A DNA stretch of 64,000 nt from an uncultured archaeon (GTDB lineage Archaea > Asgardarchaeota > Lokiarchaeia > Sigyniarchaeales > SOKP01). Positions 5,024 to 55,778 of this stretch are shown here, piece by piece. A program made the position numbers and the translations under genes. The DNA is taken from positions 566 through 64,565 of the forward strand of contig CAZBNW010000004.1 in assembly GCA_964493385.1 (NCBI GenBank). The letters run 5' to 3'. Below the pieces are notes generated by a model. That model made no database searches and was not told the DNA's origin. It saw only the letters and a program-made list of their open reading frames with translations. Positions within the stretch are counted from its first letter, which is position 1. The number at the start of each line of letters is the position of its first letter.

Positions 5024-6462
5024 TTATAAAATCTAATGTTCCATTAATTTTTGAAAAAGGATTTGACGGTGAACAACAGATATTTATACCTCAAATGGAT
5101 GTTGAAGTAGTTGATCTCAATGAAATTATACCAGAAATTTTACAAAGAAAAGATTTACCAATTCCAAATCTCCCAGAGGTAGAACTAGTTCGCCATTTTA
5201 TCAATTTAAGCCATCGAAATTATGGAGTAGATACTGGAATATATCCTCTAGGCTCATGCACTATGAAATATAATCCTAAAGTAAATGAAATTGTTGCAAA
5301 ATTACCAGGATTTACGTTCATTCATCCATTACAAGAAGAAAATGAAGGTTGTATTGAATTACTTTATCATCTCTCAAAACTATTAGGAGAACTGACGGGA
5401 ATGGGTGGATTTACCTTACAACCAGCAGCTGGAGCTCATGGAGAATTAGTGGGTTTACTTATTATGAAAAAATATTTTGAGATTAAAGGTCTTAAAAAAC
5501 AGAAAATAATAGTTCCAGATTCTGCTCATGGAACCAATCCAGCATCGGCAAAGATGGCAGGATTTTCAATCATAGAATTAAAATCAAATAAACAAGGAGA
5601 AGTTCCATTAGATCAATTAGAATTCGCAATGCAGGAAGGTGATGTTGCGGGAATCATGCTCACTAATCCCAATACTTTAGGGGTTTTTGATAGGCAGATA
5701 AAAGATATTACGCGTATTGTACATGATAATGGAGGATTATGTTATTATGATGGGGCAAATCTAAACCCAATGTTAGGAATATGCCGTCCTCGGGATATGG
5801 GATTTGATATTGTTCATTTAAATTTACACAAAACATTTTCTACTCCACATGGTGGAGGGGGGCCAGGATCAGGGCCCATAGGTGTTGTAAATGAATTAAT
5901 TCCTTTCCTTCCTGAAATCTGCTTAATATCAACAGAACAAGGGATTGTATGCAGAGAAAAAAATGATAATTCAATTGGAAGAATTAAAACTTTTTGGGGT
6001 AATTTCGGAGTAATCATTAGAGCATATGCTTATATCCTAGCTTTAGGTGCAGAAGGCTTAAAGAAAGTTGCTCAGATTGCAGTTTTAAATGCAAATTATT
6101 TAAAAGTTCAGTTACAACAAAAATATTATCTCCCTTATAACCGTGCCTGCCAACACGAGTTTGTCTTATCAGATCAAGCTATGCCCAATAATGTCACTAC
6201 TGAAGATATTGCAAAACGTATTCTTGATTTTGGAATTTATGCTCCAACCATCTATTTTCCATTAATTATTCCAGGAGCTTTAATGATCGAGCCTACTGAA
6301 ACCGAATCAAAACAATCTTTAGATTACTTTGTGGAGGTAATGAATAAAATTTATGAAGAAGCAGAATCTAACCCTGATCTCTTAAAAAGTGCTCCTCACA
6401 ATACTCCAGTTAAACGCCTTGATGCTGTACTTGCTGCAAGAAAACCTATTCTACATGATTAA
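5023..6462 (+). CDS. gcvPB: Glycine dehydrogenase (decarboxylating) subunit 2; the start is apparently non-canonical (ATT 5023 or ATA 5020/5026)
   Basis: PLP-site region NLHKTFSTPHGGGGPG. The conserved N-terminal PLIFEK motif is encoded in frame upstream of the listed ATG 5095, and no ATG/GTG/TTG occurs back to the stop at 5005. GGAGGT lies at 5011..5016. Confidence 0.8.
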   Translation: MIKSNVPLIFEKGFDGEQQIFIPQMDVEVVDLNEIIPEILQRKDLPIPNLPEVELVRHFINLSHRNYGVDTGIYPLGSCTMKYNPKVNEIVAKLPGFTFIHPLQEENEGCIELLYHLSKLLGELTGMGGFTLQPAAGAHGELVGLLIMKKYFEIKGLKKQKIIVPDSAHGTNPASAKMAGFSIIELKSNKQGEVPLDQLEFAMQEGDVAGIMLTNPNTLGVFDRQIKDITRIVHDNGGLCYYDGANLNPMLGICRPRDMGFDIVHLNLHKTFSTPHGGGGPGSGPIGVVNELIPFLPEICLISTEQGIVCREKNDNSIGRIKTFWGNFGVIIRAYAYILALGAEGLKKVAQIAVLNANYLKVQLQQKYYLPYNRACQHEFVLSDQAMPNNVTTEDIAKRILDFGIYAPTIYFPLIIPGALMIEPTETESKQSLDYFVEVMNKIYEEAESNPDLLKSAPHNTPVKRLDAVLAARKPILHD

Positions 6463-49101: not shown

Positions 49102-50580
49102 TTACCTTTTGGATTTTAATTGACTTAGTTTTTTTCCATATTCATATAATTTCAAAAATGATTTAGCAGCAGCTTCAATTGTAGGATAAACAATGAACTT
49201 ATCATTAATTAGTAAGTGGCTAAATTTGGCTTGAGATTCACTAGGATACTGATGTAAGATAATAATAAAAACCTTATTTAATGATTCAACATACTCTCTC
49301 AATTCTAACAGATTATTATAATAACCTTTAAAACGTTCACCTTCCATGTCTTTCCAAGAATCGGTTTCGACTATTATCAAATCAATATTTTCGCTGATAG
49401 CGGATTTACAAACCTCTACTAACACTTTTTGGTGTGTTACCCAAGGTAAATCAAAAGGGTTTGATAAACTACCAACTCTTATTGGATATATTTCTTTTAA
49501 TTTCTCTAGAGCATCACCTTCAAAATAAGGTAATTTTAATCCTAACTCTATTAAGGTATCTGTTGCTAAAATGCCAAAACCACCAGACCAAAGAACCACT
49601 AAAGCTCGTTTGTTTATGGGATAAATAATATTCTTCTTTAATTTACTAAACCGAGATATATAACTAGAAAAAAGAAAAGTATAATCAATTAGTTCATCCA
49701 AAGAAGGAGGAACTTCAATAGTGCGGGTTTGTTTATAGATCGCACCCCAAATATCGCCTTTTGTTGCTAAAGCTCCTGTATGAGTCAAAACAGCAGTTTG
49801 CCCTCTTGAAGTTCTTCCACCTCTCATAAATAATACTGGTTTTTTCATCTTTTTCAAAATATTAAATAAATTCTTTCCCTCATTTTTGTGGAATGGCGAA
49901 ATTCCTTCAAAATAAACACATATTACATCAGTATCAACATCTTTATTGAGATATTCTAAAATTTCTGAAATTTGAATATCTATACAATTTCCAATGCTTA
50001 TTCCAATCGAAAATCTAAGATTATATCTTCGAGAACCAAATTTTATCATTTTAGAGTGCAAATCTCCTGATTGAAAAATAAGACCAATATTGCCTCTCTC
50101 CACAGGAAAAGATGAGTAATATGCAGTTTTTCCGCGAGGATTATATAATCCCATACAGTTTGGACCTATAGCTCTTGTATTCTTATAATTTTCCAATAGT
50201 TCTTTTAACTGGCGTTCAATTTCTACGCCTAAATCGTCAAATTCCCCTGTTCCAGCTGTAAATATATGAACAAAATTTACTTTTTTTTTCGATAAAATAT
50301 CTACTAATGATTCAATAAGCAATTCTCTTCTTACAGATAAAATTAATAGATCTATTATATCCTCTGGAATGTCATCAACAGTTTTATAACATTTCAGACC
50401 TGAAAATTCTTCTTCTTTAGTTGATATTAAATATAACTTCCCTAAATCAAAACCTTGCCTTTTAAATCCTTCAATGAAAAATGAAATACCTTGGCTTACT
50501 TTAAAAATTGCTACACTATTAGGCTTAAATAATCTCTCAAATGAATGTATATTATCCTTCTTTTCCATTTTTATCCTCAA
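49102..50580 (-). CDS. NDP-forming acyl-CoA synthetase alpha-like protein (CoA-binding plus CoA-ligase domains)
   Basis: GPNCMGLYNP, the phosphohistidine-loop-like AVLTHTGALA and FTAGTGEFDD. Confidence 0.7.
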   Translation of the reverse strand: MRIKMEKKDNIHSFERLFKPNSVAIFKVSQGISFFIEGFKRQGFDLGKLYLISTKEEEFSGLKCYKTVDDIPEDIIDLLILSVRRELLIESLVDILSKKKVNFVHIFTAGTGEFDDLGVEIERQLKELLENYKNTRAIGPNCMGLYNPRGKTAYYSSFPVERGNIGLIFQSGDLHSKMIKFGSRRYNLRFSIGISIGNCIDIQISEILEYLNKDVDTDVICVYFEGISPFHKNEGKNLFNILKKMKKPVLFMRGGRTSRGQTAVLTHTGALATKGDIWGAIYKQTRTIEVPPSLDELIDYTFLFSSYISRFSKLKKNIIYPINKRALVVLWSGGFGILATDTLIELGLKLPYFEGDALEKLKEIYPIRVGSLSNPFDLPWVTHQKVLVEVCKSAISENIDLIIVETDSWKDMEGERFKGYYNNLLELREYVESLNKVFIIILHQYPSESQAKFSHLLINDKFIVYPTIEAAAKSFLKLYEYGKKLSQLKSKR

Positions 50581-51160
50581 TTGTTATTGTTAAATCTGTA
50601 TTACAATTATAGCAAAATTTTGGGATAGATTCGAATTCAGTTCCACAATTTGGGCACATAGTTTTACTCGTACTCGCAATAGCATGTAAATCTTCAATTT
50701 GAGTCTCAATTTTAAGTCTCTTGATTTTTCTTAGTATTGATGAAAGTCCGATTGAAAGGCCAACAATTACAACACCTAGCAGAATTGTGTGTAAAAAATG
50801 AAATTGAAAATTAGAATTAAAATATTCAGGTGAATATCTTGACAAAAATACATAAAGAAAAAAATTTGGAAAGAAAAATGTTATTAAATTCATTGAATAC
50901 GATTTTTTGAAATTATCATAAATGAATATTGGAATTAATGATACTAAAATCCAAATCAAATATATAATAAATAAACCAAACAAATTATCAAACAAAATAT
51001 AGTTTGCTAAGAACTGTATAATAACTTTTTGTTCTTCTAAAACGCCTGCATCAAAATTTATGTTAATCTTATAATCCATAAAGAATATAAATAGAGTTAG
51101 AATTAGAGTTTGGATGATAAAAATAACAATTCTACTTCTAAAAACTTCTTTTAATTTCAT
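50552..51160 (-). CDS. Membrane protein with a C-terminal zinc ribbon
   Basis: Hydrophobic N-terminal two thirds; CPNCG...CYNC at the C-terminus. It overlaps the downstream gene by 29 nt. Confidence 0.5.
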   Translation of the reverse strand: MKLKEVFRSRIVIFIIQTLILTLFIFFMDYKININFDAGVLEEQKVIIQFLANYILFDNLFGLFIIYLIWILVSLIPIFIYDNFKKSYSMNLITFFFPNFFLYVFLSRYSPEYFNSNFQFHFLHTILLGVVIVGLSIGLSSILRKIKRLKIETQIEDLHAIASTSKTMCPNCGTEFESIPKFCYNCNTDLTITIEDKNGKEG

Positions 51161-51415: not shown

Positions 51416-54337
51416 GTGAGCTATACATTTTCAAGAACTAAAATGATTGAAAAAATCAAATTTGGGCTCCTAAGCCCTGATGAAATACGTAAAATGTCTG
51501 CTGCTCGTATAATCACAGCAGATACGTATGATGAAGATGGTCTCCCGATCCCGAGTGGACTTATGGACCAAAGACTAGGTACCATCGAACCTGGCCAACG
51601 TTGTCAGACCTGTGGAAATCTTGTAAGTAATTGCATGGGACATTTTGGCCATATTGAACTTGCAAGACCAGTTATTCATGTAGGTTATGCAAAAAAAGTG
51701 TTAAAAGTTCTTCGATCTATATGTCCTGAATGCTCTCGATTAATGCTAACTGAAGAGGAAAAAGAAAGTTTTAGACAAGAGCAGTTGAAGCATCGAAAAA
51801 TATTTTTTGAAGGTGATGAGGATGCCGCTAAAATTGTATTCAAAAAAGCGAGAAAAGTAAAGACATGCCCTCATTGTGGAGCTAAGAAAAAAAAGATAAT
51901 TATTGAGAAACCAACTACCTTTTATGAAGAAGAAGAAGGAAAAGGTTCACGGAGAATAACACCTATTGAGATTTTAGAACGATTAAAAAAAATGAGCGAT
52001 GTGGATCTTAGGATCCTCGGTATTTCACCTGAAAATGCTAGACTCGAATGGGTAATATTTACAGTCTTACCAATACCTCCCGTATGTGCAAGGCCATCAA
52101 TTACTTTAGATAGCGGAATTCGTTCTGAAGATGATTTAACGCATAAATTGGTTGATGTCATTCGAATTAATCAGAGATTAAGAGAAAATATTGATGCTGG
52201 AGCGCCACACTTAATTGTTGAAGATCTTTGGGAATTATTACAATATCATATTACAACTTATTTTGATAATCAAGTATCTGGGATCCCTCCTGCGAGACAT
52301 CGTTCTGGTAGAGCACTGAGAACGTTAACTCAGAGACTGAAAGGGAAAGAGGGAAGATTTAGAAGTAATTTAAGCGGGAAAAGAGTTGATTTTTCTGCCC
52401 GAAGTGTTATATCACCAAATCCATACATCAGTATTAATGATGTAGGTGTACCAATAGAAATTGCAAAAATTTTGACAATACCTACTAATGTTAACGATTG
52501 GAATATTGAAGAGATGAAGCAAATAGTCCTAAATGGTCCATTTAATCATCCAGGTGCAAATTATATTATACGAAATGATCGTAGAAGGATTGATCTTCGA
52601 TATGTGAAAAATAGAAAAATAATTGCAGATATGCTCACACCGGGCTTTACTGTTGAGCGTCACCTAAATGATGGGGACTTAGTGTTATTTAATCGCCAGC
52701 CTTCACTTCATAGAATGTCAATAATGGCTCATGAAGTAAAAATTATGAAAGGAAGAACTTTTCGATTAAACTTAACTGTATGTCCACCATACAATGCTGA
52801 TTTTGATGGAGATGAGATGAATTTACATGTACCTCAAAGTGAAGAAGCTCGAACGGAGGCAGAATTACTTCTTAAAGTTCAAGAACATATACTTTCTCCG
52901 CGATTTGGCGGACCAATCTTAGGTGGAATTCAAGATTTTATTTCAAGTGTATTTCAATTTACTAGTAAGGATTCATTATATAATAAAAAAGATACATTAA
53001 AATTATTGTATATTGGAGATGTTTATAAAAATAATCCTAATTTTAGTTTGGATCAACTTATTCCTGTAATTACCGATCCCAAACCAATGTATTCTGGAAA
53101 AGAAATTTTCAGTACATTATTTCCAGAGGATCTAAATATTAAAGTAAAATCTAAATTTTGTAAAAAATGTGAAGTCTGTGAAGAAGATAATTGTAGTTAT
53201 GACGCATATGTTGTAATTAAAAATGGTAAATTGATTACTGGAACTGTTGATGAGAATTCGTTTGGTGCCATGCAATCAAATAGTATATTACAACGAATTA
53301 TCAAGGATCATGGCAATGCGCGAGGAAGACAATTTTTAGACAGTGCTACTAAGATGCTCCTATACGTTATTAGGCAAAATGGAATGACTATGGGATTGGA
53401 TGAAGTATATGTGCATGGACATGCATATGATGAAATCAAAAAGATATTAGAAGAAGCAAATATAGAATCTGAGAAATTAATCAAAGCTTTTTATGATAAC
53501 GATACTAAAATACTTAAACGAGCTCCTGGTCGTTCTATGAGAGAAACCTTGGAATTAAGAATCAGACAGGTATTAGCAGAAGCCCGTAAAAAAGCTGAAG
53601 AAACAGCAGCAGAGTTCATTGGTGATGAAGCTCATTCAGTTATAATGACCAAATCTGGAGCCAGAGGTAATATATTAAATCTAGGACAAATGTCTGCTGT
53701 TGTTGGACAACAAGCTATTAGAGGTGAGAGAATTAATCGAGGATATAGTATGAGAACTTTACCTCATTTTAAAATAAATGACCTTAGTCCTCGAGCTCGT
53801 GGTTTTGTTGCATCCTCTTACCGAAATGGATTAAAACCAGTGGAATTCTTCTATCATGCTATGGGTGGTCGAGAAGGGCTTGTTGATACAGCAGTCAGAA
53901 CAAGCACATCTGGATACATGCAACGGAGGCTTGTAAACGCCTTACAAGATATGGTTGTTGAAAATGATGGAACTGTAAGAAACTCAGACAAAAATGTAAT
54001 CCAATTTTGCTTTGGAGATGATGGCATAGACGCTATGCATACCGATCACGGTGCTGCAGTAAATTTAGATGTTTTATTATTAAAGGCTAAAGCTTTGGAT
54101 GTTGAAAAGGTGCGTGAAGAAATTAAAAAAGACTCTACAACAAAAACTTCTCTATCTAAAAAGAAAGTTGTTTCTAAGAAAAAACAAATAAAAAAAGCTT
54201 CAGTTCAAGCACAACCGAAGAAAGTTAAAGTTGATGAAGATTCCTTACAGCAACAGTTTGAAGAGGAAACTGGCAAGAAAGCAATTTGGCGGGGTAAAGA
54301 AACTAAAGCTTATTTAGAATGGAAAGAAGAAAAATAG
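51416..54337 (+). CDS. rpoA1: DNA-directed RNA polymerase subunit A' with a ~70-aa Lys-rich C-terminal extension
   Basis: Zinc motifs CQTCG..CMGHFGH, the catalytic NADFDGDEMN, and RQPSLHRMS. GGAGGT at 51403..51408 lies 7 nt before GTG 51416. Confidence 0.95.
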   Translation: MSYTFSRTKMIEKIKFGLLSPDEIRKMSAARIITADTYDEDGLPIPSGLMDQRLGTIEPGQRCQTCGNLVSNCMGHFGHIELARPVIHVGYAKKVLKVLRSICPECSRLMLTEEEKESFRQEQLKHRKIFFEGDEDAAKIVFKKARKVKTCPHCGAKKKKIIIEKPTTFYEEEEGKGSRRITPIEILERLKKMSDVDLRILGISPENARLEWVIFTVLPIPPVCARPSITLDSGIRSEDDLTHKLVDVIRINQRLRENIDAGAPHLIVEDLWELLQYHITTYFDNQVSGIPPARHRSGRALRTLTQRLKGKEGRFRSNLSGKRVDFSARSVISPNPYISINDVGVPIEIAKILTIPTNVNDWNIEEMKQIVLNGPFNHPGANYIIRNDRRRIDLRYVKNRKIIADMLTPGFTVERHLNDGDLVLFNRQPSLHRMSIMAHEVKIMKGRTFRLNLTVCPPYNADFDGDEMNLHVPQSEEARTEAELLLKVQEHILSPRFGGPILGGIQDFISSVFQFTSKDSLYNKKDTLKLLYIGDVYKNNPNFSLDQLIPVITDPKPMYSGKEIFSTLFPEDLNIKVKSKFCKKCEVCEEDNCSYDAYVVIKNGKLITGTVDENSFGAMQSNSILQRIIKDHGNARGRQFLDSATKMLLYVIRQNGMTMGLDEVYVHGHAYDEIKKILEEANIESEKLIKAFYDNDTKILKRAPGRSMRETLELRIRQVLAEARKKAEETAAEFIGDEAHSVIMTKSGARGNILNLGQMSAVVGQQAIRGERINRGYSMRTLPHFKINDLSPRARGFVASSYRNGLKPVEFFYHAMGGREGLVDTAVRTSTSGYMQRRLVNALQDMVVENDGTVRNSDKNVIQFCFGDDGIDAMHTDHGAAVNLDVLLLKAKALDVEKVREEIKKDSTTKTSLSKKKVVSKKKQIKKASVQAQPKKVKVDEDSLQQQFEEETGKKAIWRGKETKAYLEWKEEK

Positions 54338-54371
54338 AATAATTATTATCAAAAGGAAGAGAATAAAAAAA

Positions 54372-54512
54372 ATGGCAAAAAAAAAATCAACAGGAAATCC
54401 TGATTTAGTAGCTTTAAAAAAACAATATAAAGAAGAAACAGGAAAAAATGCTGTCCATTGTGGAAAAATAACTAAAGGATTTCAAGAGTGGAAAAAACAA
54501 AAACAAGGTTAA
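54372..54512 (+). CDS. 46-aa ORF repeating the C-terminal mini-domain of RpoA1
   Basis: MAKKKSTGNPDLVALKKQYKEETGKNAVHCGKITKGFQEWKKQKQG aligns with the RpoA1 tail SLQQQFEEETGKKAIWRGKETKAYLEWKEEK. It is below the ORF-track size cut-off. Confidence 0.5.
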   Translation: MAKKKSTGNPDLVALKKQYKEETGKNAVHCGKITKGFQEWKKQKQG

Positions 54513-54519
54513 AATTTAA

Positions 54520-55778
<1,259 letters not shown>

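Follow-up and report, generated by a model that had tools for sequence, protein, structure and literature searches.

Lineage-specific additions to RNA polymerase (RNAP), such as the C-terminal domain of the bacterial alpha subunit (alpha-CTD), the C-terminal domain (CTD) of Rpb1, Rpo13, and the SI3 insertion of beta', are sites where regulation plugs into the enzyme. The alpha-CTD is a small domain flexibly linked to a core subunit, which reaches DNA and regulators and whose binding to DNA and activators is proven. In Sulfolobales, Rpo13 is a small basic add-on near the shelf and jaw, on the downstream-DNA side, and its Lys-rich tail has been proposed to touch DNA; to our knowledge, it is restricted to Crenarchaeota and does not occur as a promiscuous module in other proteins. 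Here, we have analyzed the rpoA1-rpoA2 region within a 64,000-nucleotide stretch of DNA (hereafter the window) from an uncultured archaeon of the Lokiarchaeia (Table 1). Judged from sequence, the window holds two paralogous copies of an unnamed module of ~30 residues found in Lokiarchaeia, one at the end of RpoA1 (A') and one in a free open reading frame (ORF) between rpoA1 and rpoA2. In Loki-type Asgard archaea, the largest RNAP subunit terminates in a conserved Lys-rich tether and this small module, predicted to be folded and unnamed before. We hold this anatomy and the family assignment with high confidence.

Table 1. Features of the rpoA1-rpoA2 region, with positions numbered from the first letter of the window.
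Feature	Position	Strand	Basis
rpoA1 (Rpo1N/A') coding sequence, 973 aa, tail and stop codon included	51416..54337	+	ORF listing; Pfam RNA_pol_Rpb1 domains 1-5
Conserved helix closing the A' body, residues 884-905, NLDVLLLKAKALDVEKVREEIKK	54065..54130	+	Helix predicted by AF2; conserved at the start of 42/42 tails
Lys-rich linker, predicted disordered, residues ~906-940	54131..54235	+	AF2 pLDDT ~50, without secondary structure
Tail copy of the module, residues ~941-973	54236..54334	+	Predicted helix 941-952, beta-hairpin 957-962, helix 964-972; AF2 pLDDT 93-94; profile E=8e-20
Spacer 1 (IGR1)	54338..54371	+	Homologous to the ordinary rpoA1-rpoA2 spacer of L051, L053, and L061
Free module protein, 46 aa, MAKKK...HCGK subfamily, MAKKKSTGNPDLVALKKQYKEETGKNAVHCGKITKGFQEWKKQKQG	54372..54512 (stop codon included)	+	Identical protein on 7 contigs
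Spacer 2 (IGR2)	54513..54543	+	With the 3' end of the free ORF, homologous to the L032 RpoA1 tail end and spacer
rpoA2 (A''), putative exon 1	54544..54814	+	Pfam Rpb1_5; alignment with relatives
29-nt insertion, candidate bulge-helix-bulge (BHB) intron	54815..54843	+	Absent from L010, L051, L032, and L053
rpoA2, putative exon 2	54844..55778	+	Frame open from 54768; listed ORF begins only at 54921

The rpoA1 product contains Rpb1 domains 1-5 in order (PF04997, PF00623, PF04983, PF05000, and PF04998; Pfam E=2e-97 to 7e-27). The domain 5 match stops at residue 875, so that the series closes in the first part of that domain, and a separate A'' gene follows downstream, as in A' subunits; the closest PDB matches are Rpo1N chains. 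However, whereas solved A' chains (880 and 906-910 aa) close within ~10-15 residues of the domain 5 segment, the window protein runs ~70-80 residues further. Since solved archaeal A' chains stop 9-13 residues past the position aligned with window residue ~890, residues ~906-973 are without counterpart in solved structures, and a search of solved A' chains and Rpb1 for a counterpart of the tail found none; the protein is therefore a genuine A' to which a tail has been added. A first-pass annotation of the window, made from the letters alone, had located rpoA1, its tail, the free ORF, and a 206-nt spacer, and these coordinates and sequences were reproduced exactly. It had also described ~40 Lys/Ser/Val-rich residues after "...NLDVLL"; a basic linker is indeed present, but the first ~20 of these residues (884-905) form a conserved predicted helix of the A' body, which partly aligns with the chain ends in Thermococcales A' structures, which leaves a linker of ~35 residues (906-940).

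A genome search returned 61 loci, all in metagenome-assembled genomes (MAGs) labelled as Asgard lineages (mostly Promethearchaeota) or "uncultured archaeon", and in 41 of these rpoA1 is followed by rpoA2 and its product bears the module at the extreme C-terminus. The tail is not confined to the genome of the window, as every one of these 41 related RpoA1 loci has it. The earlier suggestion of a lineage-specific A' appendage made of a flexible basic linker and a small module is supported. In 42 species, the stretch that leads from where the tblastn body match stops (residue 885) up to the module, and takes in the conserved helix 884-905, spans 47-108 aa with 29% Lys and a net charge of +4 to +26, and the linker often consists of tandem K/P/T/A repeats, such as PTKK (six times in L032), TTPKTKQPxK (eight times in L025), and APAKK (four times in L017). 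The tail module itself, which includes the last 31 residues of the window protein (SLQQQFEEETGKKAIWRGKETKAYLEWKEEK, 54242..54334), shows a mean pairwise identity of 71% over 29 residues in the same 42 species. A divergent Lokiarchaeia lineage has three tandem modules on RpoA1; three modules were seen on RpoA1 of P0142 (RLI63988.1, Lokiarchaeia) and of P0172.

Among described systems, the alpha-CTD offers the closest functional analogy for the mechanism proposed below, as both would be independently folded small domains on a flexible linker of a core RNAP subunit. The alpha-CTD, however, sits on alpha and not on the beta'-like A', is all-helical and about 85 aa long, and has no sequence or predicted-fold kinship to the Loki module; its binding to DNA and activators is established experimentally, whereas that of the Loki module is proposed here, and the linker of the Loki tail carries a strong positive charge and is repetitive. 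Rpo13 resembles the tail in being a lineage-specific, small, and basic archaeal RNAP add-on, although, instead of being fused to A', it forms a subunit of its own with a helix-turn-helix, and it is unrelated in sequence to the module. The heptad-repeat CTD of Rpb1 is likewise a disordered and often tandemly repetitive extension of the largest subunit, and the Loki tail occurs in the archaeal group with kinship to eukaryotes, but this tail lies at the A' end, which matches Rpb1 residue ~880, where the foot begins, rather than at the A''/Rpb1 end, is composed of K/P/T/A rather than YSPTSPS, and terminates in a module predicted to be folded; no evidence for homology between the two was found. The likeness to Lys-Pro-Ala-rich tails of the histone H1 or SPKK type is confined to linker composition and repeats, the Loki linker sequence not being conserved between the 42 species, and it suggests non-specific binding to polyanions (DNA).

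A profile search, which the first-pass annotation had proposed along with structure prediction and a survey of other Asgard rpoA1 genes, identified exactly two sites when the window was translated in all six frames (next best match, E=1.5). Both copies carry the signature (F/Y)-x-E-(E/T)-T-G-K-x-A-I-(W/H/Y)-x-G-x-x-T-x-x-(F/Y)-x-x-W and match the A3 profile (E=7e-25 for the free copy). Homologues numbered 13 at first and then 136, and among 1.84 billion proteins 518 representative clusters were detected at E<=1e-3 (114 at E<=1e-10). W, G, and T as well as the ETGK motif hardly change across the 518 clusters, and the alignment columns that show near-invariance are E, T, G, K, A, G, T, and W. 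Pfam, NCBIfam, PHROG, PDB, and BFVD contain no match to the module and the literature searched does not mention it, in agreement with the earlier statement that the motif belongs to no named family. When AF2 was run with family alignments, a helix/beta-hairpin/helix fold was predicted for both copies, with helix 10-23, hairpin 28-33, and helix 35-45 in the free protein (mean pLDDT 79, 85-90 in core residues 11-40). The mean net charge in 197 modules is -2 for the first helix and +4.5 for the hairpin plus helix 2; in the predicted fold, the first helix is acidic and the one that follows the beta-hairpin is basic.

The module is not specific to RNAP but occurs in hundreds of other proteins. It is fused to response-regulator/HisKA proteins, ABC ATPases, small GTPases (Arf/Ras/Roc, at the end of a long linker in P0164), ribosomal protein L13e, and the tails of membrane proteins; REC was found as a partner domain in 29/83 and HisKA, with a borderline RHH_1 match, in 19/83, and further partners include RT plus Cap4 nuclease, L13e, Zn ribbons, and RNAP.

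Several known families were considered and rejected. WHEP-TRS of eukaryotic aminoacyl-tRNA synthetases (PF00458) shares a local L-K-x-x-Y-K-E-x-T-G-K at a helix end (Pfam E=0.021; PDB 1d2d, E=0.46), but the match reaches 15.3 bits against a cut-off of 32.5, covers only profile positions 32-46 (15 residues), and appears in only 2/86 family members; moreover, WHEP is a helix-turn-helix that lacks the beta-hairpin and W...W half of the module. A zinc ribbon or C2H2-like beta-beta-alpha zinc finger requires four Cys/His ligands, whereas the tail-type module has no Cys or His and the free type a single His-Cys pair, and no Zn-ribbon Pfam match falls on the module itself. Phage_Gene33 (PF25742) gives at best 14.7-14.8 bits (E about 0.02-0.04) against a gathering threshold of 27, although this sub-threshold match recurs in 7/86 members and in the tail.

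The free ORF matches the tail with 17/34 identities (BLASTP, composition-adjusted E=1e-10), and the motif first noticed in both is a real, conserved mini-domain that is predicted to fold. An AT-rich genome, Lys-rich flanks, and the shortness of the ORF might have led one to regard the similarity as a Lys/Glu low-complexity artefact and the ORF as a spurious frame in an AT-rich spacer. This reading, to which we give practically no credence, is refuted by the composition-adjusted E-value, by profile E-values down to 1e-25 in a search of 5.8 billion proteins (4e-25 for the free ORF), by the near-invariant W, G, and T columns and ETGK motif in the 518 clusters, by the confident fold prediction, and by orthologues of 43-46 aa in many Lokiarchaeia, with length and start conserved over many species. 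Also contrary to an artefact, the dN/dS of the free ORF against divergent orthologues is 0.09-0.18 at a near-saturated dS of about 0.7-1.4; because of this ratio of about 0.1-0.2, the free ORF is a genuine conserved small gene, and such purifying selection argues for its translation. The first-pass annotation had described it as a duplicate of the tail mini-domain and a possible RNAP accessory element; read in this way, it would be a recent tandem duplicate of the tail and a dedicated RNAP accessory subunit. It does adjoin the tail and share its motif, the same arrangement exists in L010, its 3' end and IGR2 are 85% identical to the tail end and spacer of L032 over 79 nt, and the gene is probably co-transcribed with rpoA1 and rpoA2 here, since neither IGR1 nor IGR2 contains an oligo-T run. 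However, free 44-aa proteins that other Lokiarchaeial genomes encode away from rpoA share 73-77% identity with the free ORF, compared with only ~46-50% for its own neighbouring tail, and the ORF bears the MAKKK N-terminus and HCGK/KGFQEW signature of a subfamily of its own. L051 (98% identical A' body) and L032, both close relatives, lack it, and 6/7 species representatives with the gene encode it elsewhere, L010 being the only one with the gene at rpoA; in L001, L004, and L011-L016 it lies in unrelated and variable gene contexts. The conserved linkage to RNAP genes expected of a dedicated subunit is therefore confined to the window lineage and L010. A tail duplicate with a dedicated accessory role is largely refuted and very improbable, and, as the free ORF falls in a separate, usually rpoA-distant subfamily, it appears to be a member of an older stand-alone subfamily inserted at rpoA. 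In sum, the conserved module and the A' appendage of the first-pass annotation stand, whereas local duplication, an RNAP accessory role for the free ORF, and RNAP specificity are not supported; a nucleic-acid-binding or accessory role continues to be the most economical guess.

The history of this insertion may be read from the spacers. The rpoA1-rpoA2 spacer measures 206 nt (54338..54543) in the window versus 28-56 nt in 11 relatives without the free ORF. IGR1 is 81% identical to L051 over 81 nt, coding flanks included, and the free ORF and rpoA2 have a common start, ATGGCAAAA; IGR2 shows a weak likeness (69-71%) to the region upstream of free genes elsewhere, with 1/55 controls as high. The last residues of the L036 tail, TKGFQEWRKQK, are of the free type, and an NJ tree made without bootstrapping gives (L032,(L010,(L051,window))). 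The free ORF would thus have been inserted between rpoA1 and rpoA2 in the clade of the window and L010 and later lost in relatives, cleanly in L051 and by recombination between the two module copies in L032 and L036, leaving chimeric tails. We lean moderately toward this scenario, in which recombination is read from short AT-rich alignments and the unbootstrapped tree.

With regard to function, our best guess is that the module is a tethered knob for nucleic-acid binding or docking. In the mechanism that we tentatively propose, at somewhat less than even confidence, it would be a minimal nucleic-acid-binding knob, most likely for DNA. The tether would exit RNAP in the shelf module, near the downstream-DNA side, where eukaryotic Rpb1 goes on into the foot domain, and knob and cationic linker could hold DNA or nascent RNA around the polymerase, much as the alpha-CTD or the Lys-rich tail of Sulfolobus Rpo13 might. 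The same knob could act as the output domain of response-regulator-type proteins and membrane-anchored sensors, and the free protein, small and basic, would bind nucleic acid through the same surface. The Lys content and charge of the linkers (29% Lys, net up to +26) and their H1/SPKK-like repeats, the +4.5 of hairpin plus helix 2, the net charge of the free protein (+8), and partner domains that mostly need or have a nucleic-acid output (REC, HisKA, RT plus Cap4 nuclease, L13e, Zn ribbons, and RNAP) are consistent with such a role. On the other hand, all invariant residues but one Glu and one Lys seem to have structural roles (helix caps, turn Gly, and aromatic core); a DNA binder would not usually have an invariant Glu and an acidic first helix, it is not obvious why ABC ATPases, Arf/Ras/Roc GTPases, or the cytoplasmic tails of membrane proteins should need nucleic acid, and no likeness of the module to known nucleic-acid-binding folds was found. 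The full account, in which anatomy, history, and mechanism are combined, seems to us slightly better than an even proposition.

Some of these observations would also fit a protein-protein adaptor, either homotypic, with the acidic helix of one module meeting the basic helix of the next head-to-tail, or acting via one shared hub. Its placement at the very N- or C-terminal ends of widely differing proteins (ABC ATPases, Arf/Ras/Roc-LRR GTPases, and membrane-protein tails among them), its occurrence in tandem arrays and as free single-module proteins, the charge dipole, and the mainly fold-determining nature of its conserved positions all suit an adaptor, and on RNAP the tail would then offer a landing site to regulators that carry the module, such as RHH-HisKA-REC proteins and small GTPases, with the free 46-aa protein as a competitor or bridge. 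Nevertheless, the steady pairing with polycationic linkers would be superfluous for a pure adaptor and no likeness to known adaptor folds was found, and we regard this explanation as possible but rather unlikely. A little less likely still is that the A' tail is a recruitment platform on which the module docks two-component-type regulators, Asgard small GTPases, membrane sensors, and the free protein, module to module or via a hub; if true, recruitment in the style of the CTD or alpha-CTD would have a functional forerunner or analogue in archaea related to eukaryotes, situated at the A'/A'' junction where eukaryotic Rpb1 gained its foot domain. Targeting of host proteins to membranes or acidic phospholipids might be suggested by the conserved Trp/Phe/Tyr and Lys-rich face, by the module on ABC ATPases, TM-less HisKA proteins, and juxtamembrane tails, and by its position after long linkers on small GTPases (P0164), where eukaryotic GTPases have polybasic or lipid anchors. 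We find it improbable, as the aromatics appear in the models to build the core of the mini-domain rather than an amphipathic surface, and fusions to RNAP and L13e would be hard to account for.

A whole Asgard class carries a conserved, flexibly tethered mini-domain on the catalytic RNAP subunit, and Lokiarchaeia are now in culture. Because response regulators, Asgard small GTPases, ABC ATPases, and membrane sensors also contain the module, knowledge of its ligand would annotate hundreds of "hypothetical" Asgard proteins and could reveal a signalling route to transcription in Asgard archaea.

A separate observation concerns rpoA2, which is listed as two ORFs of 94 and 285 aa with a 29-nt insertion between them. 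Conserved A'' sequence was found upstream of the listed ATG of the second part, and the apparent split fits a putative BHB intron, with two 3-nt bulges, a 4-bp helix, and a conserved in-frame product. In this layout, H (GCGU) pairs with H' (GCGU), the bulges are AGA (B1) and AAA (B2), and a 9-bp hairpin lies between; the outer exon-exon helix is absent, and the motif is thus of the relaxed form. The BHB conformer has a predicted energy of -15.1 kcal/mol versus -15.7 for the minimum free energy structure. Four splice pairs would restore HYAGVEEFSV, only one of which has BHB geometry, and the predicted cut after the second bulge nucleotide would restore this sequence in an A'' of 401 aa. With putative BHB introns in rpoA1 and rpoA2, RNAP genes that look "split" or "frameshifted" in Asgard MAGs may be intron-containing, which would touch both annotation and the extraction of phylogenomic markers.

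In the window, an unnamed mini-domain of about 30 residues occurs exactly twice, once at the C-terminal end of RpoA1 (the A' subunit) and once in a free ORF ahead of rpoA2; a regular-expression search and a family-HMM search over all six frames of the 64 kb agree on this. The HMM scores the tail copy at E=8e-20 and the free copy at E=7e-25, and the next match lies at E=1.5. Aligned with each other by BLASTP with compositional adjustment, the copies are ungapped, with 17 of 34 residues identical and 26 of 34 similar (E=1e-10); these pairwise and HMM values place the two-copy observation well beyond chance. The coordinates in the first-pass annotation agree throughout with the ORF list and the raw sequence, and its observation is confirmed, whereas its interpretation was right in part only. 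By all domain criteria, the host protein is an ordinary A' plus an added tail.

Features of the rpoA1-rpoA2 region in the window and of related loci (L-numbers, related genome or metagenome loci bearing the module)
Feature	Locus	Position	Length	Remarks
Two ORFs directly upstream of rpoA1	window	49102..51160, - strand	492 aa, 202 aa	
rpoA1	window	51416 to 54337	973 aa	Pfam Rpb1 domains 1-5 on residues 9-875
Conserved helix past A' body	window RpoA1	residues 884-905		NLDVLLLKAKALDVEKVREEIKK
Lys/Ser/Val-rich stretch	window RpoA1	~residues 906-940		
Tail copy of module	window RpoA1	C-terminal end, after the Lys/Ser/Val-rich stretch		DEDSLQQQFEEETGKKAIWRGKETKAYLEWKEEK
Spacer 1	window	54338..54371		between rpoA1 and free ORF
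Free ATG ORF	window	54372..54512	46 aa	inside 206-nt spacer ahead of rpoA2; encodes MAKKKSTGNPDLVALKKQYKEETGKNAVHCGKITKGFQEWKKQKQG
Spacer 2	window	54513..54543		between free ORF and rpoA2
rpoA2, first listed ORF	window	54544..54828	94 aa	
rpoA2 insertion	window	54815..54843	29 nt	AGGGAGACAGATAACTGTCTTCTGCGTAA
rpoA2, second listed ORF	window	54921..55778	285 aa	
Tail module in +1 frame	L005	2780-2810		JGI metagenome contig
rpoA1 insertion	L029	5405-5435		
rpoA1 insertion	L023	5333-5372		
rpoA1 insertion	L021	1839-1888		
rpoA1 insertion	L036	2894-2978		
rpoA1 insertion	L037	5338-5367 plus next 35 nt		two adjacent BHB units, twin-intron-like
rpoA1 insertion	L024	~5340-5405	65 nt	

The motif is conserved in many relatives. 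Searched against 5.8 billion proteins, a profile built from the pair matched 13 (E down to 4e-25), and its iterated version matched 136. Among 1.84 billion cluster representatives, scanned exhaustively with HMMER, 518 reached E<=1e-3 and 114 reached E<=1e-10. In an alignment of 86 sequences, the Trp of '(E/D)W' never varies, and every named residue of 'E-T-G-K-x-A-...-G-x-x-T' is at least 90% conserved. Low-complexity Lys/Glu bias, which the first-pass annotation had named as a possible source of the similarity, fails as an explanation because the conserved columns, with their invariant Trp and their Thr, Gly and Ala, are not Lys/Glu positions. IMG/VR viral contigs yielded no match to the motif profile, so this search does not point to an origin in viruses or mobile elements. 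NCBI assigns one free-module protein, P0017, to a Nanopelagicaceae bacterium; its contig is probably mis-binned.

When each GTDB species was represented by a single genome, the scan gave 61 loci, all in MAGs whose labels read 'uncultured archaeon' or name an Asgard lineage (mostly Promethearchaeota). At 41 of them, the module forms the extreme C-terminus of an RpoA1 of ~975 aa whose body is 82-98% identical to that of the window, and rpoA2 follows in each case. Some of the MAGs (L010, L020, L026, L034, L042, L058 and L069) are titled Hod-, Thor- or Odinarchaeota; their RpoA1 bodies are 90-97% identical to that of the window, and these labels are therefore probably inaccurate. Solved archaeal A' chains (880 aa in Sulfolobales, 906-910 aa in Thermococcales) end 9-13 residues past the equivalent of window residue ~890, and homology to yeast Rpb1 ends at residue 880, a region that we take to be the start of the foot domain in the shelf module of the Pol II structure. 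Together, these end points mark the tail as an addition at the A'/A'' junction. Judged from the sequences surveyed, the Loki-type RNA polymerase has an A' tail that is conserved.

Across 42 tails (including that of the window), the 29-residue module core has a mean pairwise identity of 71%. The segment before it, measured from body residue 885 and thus including the conserved helix, spans 47 to 108 residues, with 29% Lys and a net charge of +4 to +26. The linker often consists of lineage-specific tandem repeats, such as PTKK x6 (L032), APAKK x4 (L017) and TTPKTKQPxK x8 (L025), or a duplicated KKAPVKKPGKKQAIKK (L021), and these four linkers resemble histone-H1/SPKK-type tails in composition. 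A more divergent Lokiarchaeia lineage is represented by two RpoA1 proteins, P0142 (RLI63988.1, from a Lokiarchaeia MAG) and P0172, which carry three tandem diverged modules (for example ERYQMYHDEMKKNAIYRGKVTKIYKEWEAGK), the first linker being basic and the inter-module linkers acidic. In L005, the tail module lies in the +1 frame owing to one extra A in a GAAAAC run relative to L053. Programmed frameshifting was rejected, since L053, the species representative, reads this stretch in frame; the shift is probably due to an indel that arose in assembly or between strains. A similar arrangement is seen in L006, where an 84-aa ORF overlaps a module ORF at an A-run.

AlphaFold2 with family alignments predicts the same helix, hairpin, helix topology for both copies. 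The model of the free protein (mean pLDDT 79) consists of a helix (10-23), a two-stranded hairpin (28-33) and a second helix (35-45), and that of RpoA1 residues 875-973 has a helix at 884-905, a disordered stretch (pLDDT ~50) and the module itself (pLDDT 93-94). In these models, T-G would cap helix 1, Ala and Trp would lie in strand 1, Gly would make the turn and Thr would cap helix 2, whose Phe/Tyr and Trp would complete a small aromatic core. The mean net charge over 197 modules is -2 for helix 1 and +4.5 for the hairpin plus helix 2. A conserved autonomous mini-domain is thus predicted to end a polycationic disordered tether on A'.

Neither the two copies nor 86 family members matched any family above threshold in Pfam, NCBIfam or PHROGs, and the weak matches were confined to WHEP-TRS, Phage_Gene33, UPF0223 and AID. 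WHEP-TRS membership was rejected at 15.3 bits against a cut-off of 32.5 bits, with 15 residues covered, and its sub-threshold matches fall on the LKxxYKExTGK stretch. Phage_Gene33 (PF25742) was likewise rejected (~15 bits against a cut-off of 27); it recurs below threshold in 7 of the 86 members, the window tail and P0130, a module-bearing exported protein (E ~0.02-0.04, in every case at profile positions ~11-52). The sub-threshold matches to both families may reflect chance or a very remote relationship. Membership in zinc-ribbon or C2H2 families was tested and rejected as well. A profile search of PDB sequences gave nothing below E=0.25, and a Foldseek search of the AlphaFold2 model against PDB and BFVD gave nothing with E<1. 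Searches for the motif string and for Asgard RNAP extensions found no description of the tail or module; as far as the searchable literature shows, neither the domain family nor this conserved extension of an Asgard RNAP subunit has been described before. Tethered accessory parts on RNAP are already exemplified by alpha-CTD, Rpo13 and the Rpb1 CTD, with which the module shares the general idea but no relationship.

The module is also found in many other proteins. A scan of 83 longer family members found a receiver (REC) domain in 29 and a HisKA domain in 19, typically in the order N-terminal module, a segment close to RHH_1 (20.0 bits against a threshold of 20.5), HisKA and REC. Other partners include ABC-transporter ATPases, Arf/Ras/Roc GTPases with or without LRRs, zinc ribbons, ribosomal protein L13e with two modules (P0187), a Cap4-nuclease/LRR/reverse-transcriptase protein (P0240) and the NosD-like exported protein P0130, with two modules in its post-TM tail, and up to eight module copies alternate with Lys-rich linkers in P0132 and P0156. 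Given this range of partners, the module is a terminal element used promiscuously across the Lokiarchaeial proteome and is not specific to RNAP.

Considering composition, predicted fold and domain partners, we tentatively favor, with somewhat less than even confidence, the reading that the module is a minimal nucleic-acid-binding knob, which would unify most of the architectures and fit the basic face and linkers. On RNAP, the knob and its cationic linker would grip DNA or nascent RNA close to the shelf/downstream side, much like alpha-CTD or the Rpo13 tail, and in REC-containing and membrane-anchored proteins the module would act as the output domain. The ABC, GTPase and membrane-tail fusions would also fit a protein-protein adaptor, possibly homotypic via the charge dipole, through which signaling proteins or the free protein would dock on RNAP. 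The invariant residues, being mostly structural, are compatible with such an adaptor, which we consider rather unlikely. Targeting of the host proteins to the membrane is a third reading and appears quite improbable. We thus infer an order of preference in which the nucleic-acid-binding knob precedes the adaptor and the adaptor precedes membrane targeting.

The relatives of the free ORF form a tight subfamily of 43-46 aa with the pattern MAKKK-(8-10 variable residues)-L-x-x-x-(Y/F)-x-(E/K)-(E/T)-TGK-(N/K)-A-x-(H/Y)-C-G-(K/N)-x-TK-(G/A)-(F/Y)-x-EWK. The window protein is 73-77% identical to four other free proteins (P0002, P0003, P0004 and P0014) and ~46-50% identical to the adjoining tail, which speaks against its origin as a duplicate of that tail. 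Comparison with Loki's Castle-type orthologues (Nei-Gojobori) gave dN/dS values of 0.09-0.18 at dS ~0.7-1.4, indicating purifying selection on the reading frame; on these substitution patterns, the free ORF is a real gene, a paralogue under selection. An identical protein is encoded on seven contigs from several assemblies and adjoins rpoA1 every time. Among species representatives, the gene lies beside rpoA1 elsewhere only in L010 (A' body 97% identical), and the free gene is accordingly not RNAP-specific by placement: it occurs amid unrelated, variable neighbors in L001-L003 and L011-L016, and in L004 it has a Rad51-like gene on one side and a DUF8156/PolB pair on the other. No conserved operon was found, the neighbors differing between L001, L004 and L011-L016; the exception is a 41-aa gene downstream of the free gene in Loki's Castle-type genomes. 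Free genes outside the rpoA locus have a well-placed Shine-Dalgarno-like AGGTGAT ~7 nt 5' of the ATG. Neither spacer in the window contains an oligo-T run, and in this lineage the free paralogue and the RNAP genes probably share a transcript.

Several similarities bear on how the free gene came to lie between rpoA1 and rpoA2. The window tail end and spacer 1 are homologous to the tail end and ordinary spacer of L051 (81%), and the 3' end of the free ORF (EWKKQKQG*) and spacer 2 to the RpoA1 tail end (EWKEQKQG*) and spacer of L032 (85%). The L036 tail ends with the free-type TKGFQEWRKQK, and the free ORF and rpoA2 have a common start, ATGGCAAAA. An unbootstrapped NJ tree of the A' body gave (L032,(L010,(L051,window))). 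The simplest reading of these short AT-rich alignments and this tree is that insertion of a free-subfamily gene ahead of rpoA2, in the common ancestor of this small clade, was followed by its loss in two ways. In L051, the loss would have occurred between the two ATGGCAAAA starts, and in L032 and L036, once or more, through recombination between module copies, leaving chimeric tails that are evidently tolerated. Spacer 2 is 69-71% identical to the 5' flank of the free gene, and one of 55 control upstream regions is equally similar; an origin of spacer 2 from that flank, as in a circle-integration model, is a weakly suggested possibility.

The rpoA genes themselves may contain introns. In the window, A'' (the rpoA2 product) is split by a 29-nt insertion in the codons of the trigger-loop motif HYAGVEEFSV. 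Four close relatives in the alignment lack the insertion, and the truncated 94-aa product is encoded on all seven contigs bearing the free ORF. The insertion folds into a 4-bp helix (GCGU/GCGU) with 3-nt bulges (AGA and AAA) and a 9-bp inner hairpin, a conformer within 0.6 kcal/mol of the MFE. Cutting past nucleotide 2 of each bulge would remove precisely the insertion, restore the conserved peptide and give an A'' of 401 aa, the length in L005; the insertion thus fits a putative bulge-helix-bulge (BHB) intron. Searches of the window and of JGI metagenome contigs turned up no further copy of its 22-nt hairpin, which is therefore not a repeated mini-element. Six other Lokiarchaeial species have rpoA1 insertions of 31-85 nt that interrupt the universal GHFGH|IELARPV motif at two positions separated by 4 nt. 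In L029, L023, L021 and L036, the sole splice choice that restores the peptide also has canonical BHB geometry, and unconstrained folding of L021 and L036 gives an outer helix, a 4-bp helix and an inner helix; scripted analysis found no canonical BHB units in the L024 insertion. The inner helices differ wholly in sequence between species, and all pair. The (alpha-beta)2 splicing endonuclease encoded by Asgard archaea has broad specificity, and crenarchaeal cbf5 mRNA is known to contain BHB introns (PMC5829648). We found no report of BHB introns in Asgard RNAP genes in the literature searched on Asgard mRNA BHB introns, and 'split' or 'frameshifted' RNAP genes of Asgard MAGs may be intron-containing.

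The usual archaeal arrangement is rpoH-rpoB-rpoA1-rpoA2. The ORFs directly upstream of rpoA1 in the window lie on the opposite strand, and rpoA1 is therefore not behind rpoB; downstream of rpoA2 are the usual L30e/L7Ae-type gene and a gene for a NusA-like KH protein.
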